This document shows, piece after piece, positions 50,987-53,030 of a DNA stretch of 64,000 bases (positions within the stretch are counted from its first letter, which is position 1; the number at the start of each line of letters is the position of its first letter). The notes under the pieces are model-generated. The model saw only the letters and a list, made by a program, of their open reading frames with translations, made no database searches and had not been told where the DNA came from. The stretch comes from a virus (lineage: Duplodnaviria > Caudoviricetes): IMG/VR virus record IMGVR_UViG_3300009185_000001, positions 128,001 to 192,000 of that record; one strand, given 5' to 3'. Position numbers and translations under genes: made by a program.

Positions 50987-51500
50987 CATGATTTCGAATG
51001 ACAAAGCTTGGTTGGTAAATAATAAGAGTTTCTGTGGTGGTTACTCTTATTATTTCGGAAGTCCTACCTTCTGTGGTGGTAGGTAGGACTTCCTTAAATT
51101 TGTGAGTTGGTTCCCGATGAGCCAATGGGACTGGGAATACTCGGTCGAAACCAAAATCGGAAATTGATATTTGACATTTTAATTTTTTGGTAGATAGAGT
51201 AGTAATACCTATCCCTGTGGACTCGAAAGAGGAGTGATATCTGAAAAGAAGCGTTTCGAGAGTATTCGCACTCACTTACCAAATAATATTTTAAACCCGC
51301 CATGCCTCTGCTTGCAAGAGTAGTTTCTGAAGGCCAAGGCAACTAAGCAAGTCATGCATAATTTGGCGGGTGTTTTTATCAAGCGCAGATGCTATTTAAA
51401 AAGCTCTACCGCGACAGATGACAATGCAATGTTTCCGGAAACAACATTTAATCTGTAGGGAACTTCTCCTTAATAATCAAAAAAGAATGAGAAGTCTTGG
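50987..51500 (+). ncRNA. Unidentified highly structured RNA, 5' part
   Basis: Consecutive stems at 51017-51055, 51057-51093, 51188-51281, 51295-51372 and 51462-51496; GNRA-type loops; no credible ORF. Confidence 0.6.
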
Positions 51501-51514
51501 TAATAAATTTAAAT

Positions 51515-51601
51515 GGGTTACTATACCGTTAAAGAGGCGGTCCAGACTGTAAATCTGGCGTGTTCTGCACTCACTAGGAGCATTACCTAGGTAGCCCACC
51601 A
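51515..51601 (+). tRNA. trnY: tRNA-Tyr(GUA) with non-canonical T-loop
   Basis: Acceptor GGGUUAC/GUAGCCC, anticodon arm CCAGA-CUGUAAA-UCUGG, long variable arm, T-arm CUAGG-AGCAUUA-CCUAG, ACCA. Confidence 0.85.
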
Positions 51602-51639
51602 TTTTAATATAGAAAGAATAGATAGTGTTAGTAATAAAT

Positions 51640-52000
51640 TTTGACTGGGATGTTGGTCTAGAAAATCATCATCTAAGGAGTGGAACTGGACGTGGAGAAC
51701 TGGTAATTAGTAGGGACACAATTCATATAAGCCCTACATCCTATTTATAGGTACGGAGATGACCGTGAATTGCGTTTCACAGGATAGAGAAATCTATAAC
51801 CCCTTTAGCTTTAAAAAGCACACCAGTTTATTTTTGATAAGTCGGACGGGGAATGTGTGCTGTGCATTCTTAAAAAGCTCACCGTTGCAGACGTATCACC
51901 AGACCCGATTAGGCAGGGGGTAACAAGTAACCTTCGTCCAACGTGTTAAAAACACGGTAGCCAATGAAGAGCTTTCTGGAATTGATATTTAAAATTATAT
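51640..52000 (+). ncRNA. Unidentified highly structured RNA, 3' part, containing a 23S rRNA H42-H44-like junction
   Basis: GACUGGGAUGUUGGUCUAGAAAAUCAUCAUCUAAGGAGUG ... GCACACCAGUU plus many short hairpins. Confidence 0.6.
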
Positions 52001-52393: not shown

Positions 52394-52736
52394 GGTCGAG
52401 TGGTGGAATGGCAGACACAACGGACTTAGAGAAATTTGAGCTTTGATTGGGAAACCTTTCAAATGTAACTTGTCAAATTCGGTGAAGGGTTTAAACTCCT
52501 AATACCGAGCCAAGCATCGAAAGATGAAGGTGTAGAGACTTGACGGCAAGAACCTAAAGCGAAAGCAATGGTTAAGGTAAAGTCCAGACTACAAACAGAT
52601 TGAGAAAAGTAAATCCCGAAAGGATTGAACAGAGCGGTAAATACGCTGACTGACGAATCTGGTAACGAAAGTTATAGTAGTAAGAAAATCCGTTGCCAGT
52701 AATGGCGTGAGGATTCGAGTTCCTCCTCGACTACCA
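52394..52736 (+). tRNA. trnL: tRNA-Leu(UAA) split by a group I intron
   Basis: Exons 52394-52427 and 52685-52736 rejoin as ACGGA-CUUAAAA-UCCGU; acceptor GGUCGAG/CUCGACU; ACCA. Confidence 0.92.
52428..52684 (+). mobile_element. Group I intron (257 nt) in the tRNA-Leu anticodon, no ORF
   Basis: Follows U34 and ends in G. P1 CUU/AG with UUGAG; AAAUUCGGUGAA; AAUACCGAGCCAAG; GUAGAGACUU; AAGGUAAAGUCC; P9.0-like ACUAC/GUAGU. Confidence 0.9.
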
Positions 52737-52744
52737 ATTTAAAA

Positions 52745-52838
52745 GCAAGGTTAGTGTAACTGGAAGCACCGACAGACTTATAATCTGTGTATCCTAGATT
52801 TGGATCGAGCGTGGGTTCAATTCCCACACCTTGCACCA
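52745..52838 (+). tRNA. trnI: tRNA-Ile(UAU) with long variable arm
   Basis: GCAAGGU/ACCUUGC, ACAGA-CUUAUAA-UCUGU, 22-nt variable region with AUCC/GGAU, GUGGG-UUCAAUU-CCCAC, ACCA. Confidence 0.8.
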
Positions 52839-52945: not shown

Positions 52946-53030
52946 GCACTTGTAACTCAACGCTCTTCTAAAGCGTCCTTTAACGAGTAATTGGATATAA
53001 GGTCTGTTGGTTCGAATCCAACCAAGTGCG
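52946..53030 (+). tRNA. Rearranged tRNA-Arg(UCU)-like gene
   Basis: Acceptor GCACUUG/CAAGUGC, T-arm GUUGG-UUCGAAU-CCAAC and anticodon arm ACGCU-CUUCUAA-AGCGU are intact, but the D-arm parts are out of order. Confidence 0.7.

Follow-up and report, generated by a model that had tools for sequence, protein, structure and literature searches.

A free-standing phage RNA family resembling the GTPase-associated centre of 23S rRNA, and its derived member in the tRNA cluster of a T4-like lake phage

Genomic setting of the element

The window analysed here is a stretch of 64,000 nt taken from a 202,880-bp IMG/VR virus record with direct terminal repeats. The genome is that of a distant T4-like lake phage, with a gp23-type major head protein, portal, prohead protease, baseplate wedge and rIIA/rIIB; its gp23 shares only about 35% identity with those of the nearest cultured cyanophages. 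Between 51280 and 53200 no credible ORF is present and RNA genes are clustered on the + strand instead, namely three tRNAs called by ARAGORN, further tRNA-like matches, a group I intron and a weak abiF-type motif. The element described below, 186 nt of non-coding sequence at 51643-51828, lies within this phage tRNA cluster and on the tRNA strand (Table 1). No ribosomal protein gene is found among the ORFs neighbouring it, no uL11 gene or domain is found in the phage genome, and a promoter and terminator scan returned nothing above shuffled sequence.

Table 1. Positions of the element's parts and of other RNA features of the cluster, in window coordinates; numbers in brackets from 1057 to 1103 are E. 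coli 23S rRNA positions
Feature	Position	Strand	Basis or remark
abiF-type RNA motif	51296-51371	+	Internal insertion
tRNA-Tyr(GUA)-like stretch	51513-51642	+	CCA encoded, odd T arm
H42-like closing helix, 5' strand GACUGG	51643-51648	+	Pairs with 51823-51828; G51648 = G1055
H43-like hairpin (1057-1081)	51650-51672	+	E. coli alignment, R1 alignment, clade comparison
Junction strand CUAAGGAGU (1082-1090)	51673-51681	+	C51673-G51677 tertiary pair; A51679 = A1088
Inserted domain, 122 nt, between 1090 and 1091	51682-51803	+	Clade consensus fold
Linker UUUA (family consensus UUUG)	51804-51807	+	Precedes H44
Remodelled H44 hairpin GCU-UUAAAA-AGC (51808-51819), then ACA (1101-1103)	51808-51822	+	R1 alignment, clade comparison
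H42-like closing helix, 3' strand CCAGUU	51823-51828	+	RNAalifold and R1 alignment
Conserved non-coding stretch	51833-51990	+	
tRNA genes	52016, 52745, 52862	+	Same strand as the GAC-like element
tRNA-Leu(UAA) gene	52394-52736	+	Group I intron at 52428-52684
tRNA-Ile(UAU)	52745-52838	+	20-nt insertion in the variable region
tRNA-like gene	52946-53030	+	35.5 bits; D arm shortened, long variable insertion

The tRNA-Leu(UAA) gene is interrupted in its anticodon loop by an intron that Rfam recognizes as Intron_gpI (50.5 bits); when the exons are joined ARAGORN reports tRNA-Leu(taa), and this joined form, a 257-nt skip, is present in RNA-library contigs from two lake studies. Immediately before the element stands a tRNA-Tyr(GUA)-like stretch called by neither ARAGORN nor Rfam. 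Its roughly 130 nt are inserted in comparison with the orthologous locus (L047), and an 11-nt direct repeat, GTAATAAATTT, is found at 51502-51512 and again at 51632-51642. Directly downstream of the element is a non-coding stretch that is conserved at more than 90% identity in L047, contains UUAAAAAGCUCAC and has the deepest cover by RNA-library contigs. The abiF-type motif, about 270 nt upstream of the element, scores 28.1 bits, below the gathering score, and its orthologous counterpart at L047:4814-4850 (-) scores 49.6 bits, above it. An abiF-type antitoxin-like RNA, tRNAs and a copy of the GTPase-associated centre (GAC) in one place suggest an RNA 'counter-defence' cluster.

Anatomy of the copy in the window

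The element copies the top of H42, H43 and the 1082-1090 junction of 23S rRNA and is closed by a 6-bp H42-like helix. The E. coli sequence with which the original prediction had compared the letters at this locus proved exact (1051-1108, as in L001:1110-1167), and the letters are indeed where they had been placed. G51648-U51681 aligns to E. coli 1055-1090 with the identical blocks GGAUGUUGG, UAGAA, CAUCAU, UAA and GA. In the H43-like hairpin an AUG/CAU lower stem is followed by the bulged U51653, equivalent to U1060, and by an upper stem in which GGU/AUC stands for GGC/GCC, the compensated exchange that had been noticed at the outset. The 7-nt loop, CUAGAAA, holds A51660 at the position of A1067 and is shorter by the two nucleotides expected, which can be named as G1071 and C1072. 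In the family form, H43 has G1059, the bulge at U1060, an upper stem GG..CC and the loop UUAGAAGCA; of these the copy has the stem, the bulge and UAGAA but lacks G1071/C1072, and its stem reads GGU/AUC.

The junction strand CUAAGGAGU fits the family junction Y-U-A-A-R-G-A-G-U with its pairing between 1082 and 1086, and the C and G that had been proposed as a covariant of these two positions are located there. The distant 3' strand pairs with the 5' flank as foreseen, GACUGG with CCAGUU, and the register of these 6 pairs (G1055-C1104 outward) is common to 71 of 84 members. Binding of uL10 by the element is unlikely, because its H42 part is no more than a helix of free sequence, 6 bp long in this copy, and the internal loops conserved in H42 of rRNA are missing from it.

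The 3' half had to be redrawn. It had been thought that about 135 nt of extra hairpins replaced the H44 loop; what is found is a remodelled H44 close to the 3' end and, separate from it, a 122-nt arm between the equivalents of 1090 and 1091. The H44 of the window reads GCU-UUAAAA-AGC followed by ACAC, as compared with GC-GUANNA-GC-ACAC in the family (also given as GC-GUARNA-GC-ACA) and GC-GUAAUA-GC-UCAC in rRNA. In the clade consensus fold the inserted domain forms four hairpins (51710-51737, 51740-51751, 51752-51767 and 51784-51797) and a long-range helix of 51691-51708 with 51768-51783, and compensatory changes are seen in hairpins 1 and 4. At its foot only 2 pairs (GG/CC) are left in this copy, three of the five model pairs being broken. 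Identity between the insert and those of clade relatives is 89-95%.

Two candidate structures in this region were rejected. The stretch GGUACGGAGAUGACC (51750-51764) looks like the sarcin-ricin loop (SRL) of rRNA, but it forms a simple ACGG/CCGU hairpin, variable among its relatives. An alternative pairing of CUAAGGAGUGG with CCCCUUUAG, offered by RNAalifold for the clade, shows no covariation and is opposed by those family members in which 1082-1086 is A-U. The fold of the single sequence was uninformative (MFE -43.7 kcal/mol, z = -0.70).

Evidence for membership

Pairwise likeness to E. coli is not significant alone: when the E. coli 40-mer is locally aligned to the window the score is 28, within the range of 100 Markov-shuffled windows (25 +/- 2, max 37). 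Membership was instead assessed with a covariance model, R1, constructed from 26 short phage copies from which the window copy and its orthologue were left out. R1 returned a single match in the window, 51639-51832, at 44.2 bits (E=7.5e-12) and over the full model (1-161/161), and the same one match only in the whole 202,880-bp genome. For comparison, the genuine E. coli GAC reaches 52.4 bits with R1; scores in the family range over 44-118 bits, with the window copy at the low end.

Models already in Rfam are of no help here. Alignment to a large-subunit model had been put forward as a check, and the Rfam LSU models gave no match on the element at E<=10; nor is an LSU rRNA match (RF02541) found anywhere in the 202,880-bp genome, whereas of 14 control genomes 13 have one. 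Searches with Rfam 15, at gathering scores and at E<=10, of the window, of a 231-nt stretch and of 11 family loci yielded tRNAs, group I introns and abiF and nothing else; the element family is covered by no Rfam 15 model.

Size, fold and covariation of the family

A pattern derived from H43 found 20 IMG/VR loci, one of which is a real rRNA gene. At the other loci the H43 sequence is followed by unrelated sequence and then by UUUGGCGUAAUAGCACAC and the complement of the 5' flank. A pattern made from this 3' block found at least 120 further viral loci, nearly all with an H43-like hairpin 80-450 nt upstream. The family thus comprises well over 100 IMG/VR contigs as well as cultured phages; when run on 100 IMG/VR loci, R1 gave about 90 full-length matches of 50-118 bits. 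In prokaryote contigs, 110 of the 120 matches listed for the 3' motif are without the 5' H43 motif and most likely represent chance, those inspected looking protein-coding. Since only 10 of these 120 listed matches carry the element, the family is essentially viral.

The helices that RNAalifold recovers from the 26-member alignment are the H42-like one that closes the element, the two stems of H43, H44 and a new one at the base of the insert, with compensatory changes in 15 of 24 pairs. Across the family both sides have changed in 7 of the 8 pairs of the closing helix, and the foot helix of the inserted arm covaries in 5 of 5. In 95 distinct aligned rows 90.9% of cells are paired compared to 69.0% after shuffling, a level reached by none of 500 shuffles, and 505 cells are changed on both sides compared to 169; sliding the partners as a control lowers pairing to 30-53%. 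The tertiary pair 1082-1086 is U-A in 47, C-G in 24, A-U in 9 and G-C in 1 of 88 copies, and U1060/A1088 is kept in 87 of the 88. A1067 is retained in 76/88, G1093-A1095 in 12 of the 13 copies that had been selected on their H43 side, and the loop bases 1093-1095/1098 in canonical members. The covariation and conserved junction bases that the original prediction had expected of homologs are thus present, in every helix as well as at 1082-1086 and U1060/A1088. Its broader interpretation is supported in part, namely in the proposal that the RNA mimics the uL11-binding junction of rRNA, for which the family model and these covarying and conserved pairs speak.

From these comparisons the predicted family fold is the GAC fold plus one extra arm between 1090 and 1091. 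The alignments show it as a four-way junction, in which an H42-like helix, H43 with the U1060 bulge, the 1082-1090 strand, the variable arm and H44 come together. Arm length varies between 26 and 366 nt, and the arms form classes that are specific to clades; in the shortest members (L030) the arm is a 26-nt hairpin only. In one subclass with an arm of about 310 nt (L018:5486-5864, L064:7739-8120, L081:3688-4068 and L131:8148-8534) the arm holds AGUACGAGAGGAA, the sarcin-ricin loop sequence, in a hairpin of the form AGUAC-GNRA-GGAA on a covarying 7-bp stem, followed by UUAA. As this hairpin is inside the inserted arm, GAC and SRL are combined in one RNA; the hairpin is absent from the window copy and from most members. 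Two further loci, L020:341-453 and L011:3359-3502, keep rRNA-like sequence further down H42 (GACAGCCAGG ... CACUGGCCGAGC). By sequence they look closest to an rRNA ancestor, and they could still hold a uL10 site.

Carriers and signs of transcription

Four cultured phages carry the element: Pseudomonas phage pf16 (R1 104.6 bits), where it lies between tRNA-Asn and tRNA-Pro, Aeromonas phage 4_4572 (85.6 bits), Xanthomonas jumbo phage XacN1 (83.8 bits), where it adjoins a 2'-5' RNA ligase gene, and Ralstonia phage RSP15 (62.5 bits). In all four it is housed in an unannotated gap. A tRNA gene is present at 64 of 94 distinct loci, at a median gap of 10 nt and on the same strand in 64 of 64, and no protein family recurs as a neighbour, the commonest being found at 5/94 loci.

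RNA-library contigs from three lake-water studies cover relatives over 51671-51961, 51644-51793 and 51693-51828, and one such contig has a compensatory change, 51713 G>U with 51734 C>A. These contigs are a hint of transcription, as such libraries can contain DNA.

A derived subtype with both loops rebuilt

The clade of the window copy was gathered through a 19-nt word from the inserted arm, and its members carry one of two sets of loops. Type A combines GCUUAGARGCAGC with GGCGUANAAGC. In type B the corresponding sequences are GGUUUAGAAAACC, without G1071 and C1072, and GCU-UUAAAA-RGC, with a new loop and one additional pair (a third H44 pair, U-A or U-G). The two loop types co-occur in 17 of the 17 clade sequences that show both, and type A and type B inserts are up to 98% identical. 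At least 15 distinct type B sequences are known, six of them further copies found later, and all belong to this clade. R1 scores type A at 83-91 bits and type B at 44-69 bits. With the divergent L276 and L282 left out, clade inserts are 87-100% identical. The orthologue L047 has a near-identical arm, with compensatory changes in two hairpins, and canonical loops. Differences between it and the window copy are concentrated in the H43 loop and the H44 hairpin, whereas the arm is better kept, which points to a function in the arm in this clade.

The window copy is a member of a conserved derived subtype, type B, and thus not simply decaying. Within type B it is an outlier, as seen in its GGU/AUC stem, its 2-pair arm foot and an R1 score tied with that of L280 for the lowest. 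In E. coli, H43 and H44 are in contact through G1071/G1091-C1100, C1072/C1092-G1099 and A1070-A1096 (PMC2952862), so the parts rebuilt in type B, the H43 loop and H44, are those that touch in the ribosome. Without G1071/C1072 the tertiary fold recognized by uL11 may be looser.

Type B keeps the H43 stem and the U1060-A1088 and 1082-1086 pairs, which, following the L11-RNA crystal structures, we take to be the site of the uL11 C-terminal domain; its A1067/A1095 face is altered. It probably retains the uL11 C-domain site, then, and no longer shows the canonical face for thiostrepton, EF-G and Tre23. For the window copy, the altered face together with the kept stem and tertiary pairs would make holding uL11 likelier than acting as a decoy for thiostrepton, EF-G or Tre23. 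A decoy role for these ligands seems less likely here than for canonical members, because both loops facing them are remodelled.

Comparison with known RNAs

The closest known structure is the bacterial 23S GAC itself (top of H42, H43 and H44; E. coli 1051-1108, which contains the 58-nt uL11/thiostrepton fragment). The order of helices is the same, and the element shares the bulged U1060 with A1088, the covarying 1082-1086 pair and UUAGAA at the start of the H43 loop. It differs in being free-standing, outside any rRNA gene, in having a variable arm between 1090/1091 that makes a four-way junction, in an H42 reduced to a plain helix of free sequence, and in an A instead of U at position 1101; the window copy also lacks G1071/C1072 and has a different H44 loop.

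Leaders of ribosomal protein mRNAs, such as the L10 leader (RF00557), are likewise RNAs that copy a protein-binding site of rRNA off the ribosome. They act in cis upstream of ribosomal protein genes and copy local motifs only, whereas the element is a separate gene among phage tRNAs, and no Rfam leader model (RF00557 and relatives) matches it. GOLLD (RF01998) and ROOL (RF03087) are, like the element, ornate non-coding RNAs borne by phages next to tRNA genes and on their strand; the element is much smaller, its core is an rRNA copy, and neither covariance model (Rfam 15) matches it. Kinship with T4 rnaC/rnaD (species 1 and 2) was considered and rejected, since R1 run unfiltered on T4 69500-73500 gave at best 10.4 bits, inside segB.

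Phage-encoded copies of host or defence RNAs are also known as decoys or spare parts, including tRNAs set against tRNA-cutting defences, pseudo-ToxI and abiF-type antitoxin RNAs. Unlike the element, none of these copies an rRNA domain, and a decoy role for the element is only putative. Full-text searches of the literature brought up no account of an RNA of this kind, and as far as we could find the family has not been described so far.

Proposed function and alternatives

We tentatively favour reading 51643-51828 as the gene for a small stable RNA of the GAC-copying family that would imitate the factor-binding platform off the ribosome and titrate a host protein. The RNA would be co-transcribed with the tRNAs, released by tRNA-processing enzymes and take up the fold of the 58-nt rRNA domain. 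During infection host uL11 would bind it, at least through the uL11 C-terminal domain. Acting off the ribosome as a mimic of the platform, it would then titrate a host protein that recognizes this site, candidates being uL11 itself, a translational GTPase or RelA, or a toxin attacking the site. Because the phage has no uL11 and no partner gene accompanies the element, any protein partner would be the host's. A trans-acting decoy is possible but more doubtful: here the RNA, carried by large phages of many hosts, would be a GAC replica (in all members, with the SRL added in one subclass), loaded with uL11 and directed against a host factor or defence effector, and type B, which outside its two jointly rebuilt docking loops is 90-98% identical, would be an arms-race step with changed or escaped binding specificity.

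It is unlikely, though worth weighing, that the RNA serves as a decoy substrate for toxins of the host or of competitors that attack the factor-binding site, flooding the cell with the GAC, and with the SRL in the subclass, much as phage tRNAs buffer tRNA-cutting defences. Such toxins exist, as Tre23 ADP-ribosylates H44 at 1095-1098 and the SRL is the target of VapC20/26 and ricin-type enzymes (PMC8661411). The presence of AGUACGAGAGGAA in a covarying hairpin of the arm of L018, L064, L081 and L131, and the clustering of the element with tRNAs and an abiF-type RNA, agree with such a role. The H44 loop that Tre23 modifies is UUAAAA in the window copy, however, which would make it a poor substrate mimic. 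We also know of no defence system that targets the GAC during phage infection, which counts against this explanation.

Somewhat less probable still for the family is that the GAC fold is a tough, self-folding chassis or processing handle and that the inserted arm, which differs among clades, is the working part. The clade-specific classes of insert, from 26 to 366 nt, would follow from this, as would the 87-100% identity of clade inserts (without L276 and L282) while the rRNA-like loops were swapped. The core and not the arm is common to the whole family, however, the shortest members (L030) have nothing but a 26-nt hairpin as arm, and A1067 (76/88) and G1093-A1095 (12/13), which by the solved GAC structures we take to be exposed and not needed for the fold, are largely kept. 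For the window copy in particular, a function of the arm itself competes seriously with the titration reading.

An improbable variant is a sponge or platform for EF-G, EF-Tu, IF2, RF3 or RelA, with or without uL11, a 'ribosome in pieces'. The occurrence of GAC and SRL together in one subclass RNA and the retention of A1067 and the 1093-1095/1098 bases in canonical members are in keeping with it, and EF-G has reportedly been found, by Munishkin and Wool in 1997, to bind oligonucleotide mimics of both sites. Most members, the window copy included, are without an SRL, both factor-facing loops are changed in the window copy, and isolated pieces of rRNA are bound only weakly by translational GTPases and RelA.

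That the element is a dead piece of rRNA captured from a host, or resembles rRNA by chance, as the pairwise E. coli similarity not above chance and the silent Rfam LSU models might suggest, is hardly credible given the R1 profile (E=7.5e-12), well over 100 family copies with compensatory changes, also inside this clade, the GAGU at 1087-1090 kept irrespective of host, and a pf16 copy that differs from its host at the H43 stem, where Pseudomonas 23S presumably has the E. coli form. The last two points argue that these are not recent captures.

Significance

The family is large, ancient and present in the culturable phages pf16, XacN1, RSP15 and 4_4572, and is thus directly testable. It offers many natural variants of a textbook RNA tertiary fold, including a four-way-junction version, and the window copy is a natural double-loop replacement that probes the docking of H43 and H44. 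If the titration reading holds, phages would imitate a functional centre of the ribosome and not tRNAs alone. This would be a new class of virus-host interaction, located at the translation-factor site, on which thiopeptide antibiotics and toxins such as Tre23 also act.
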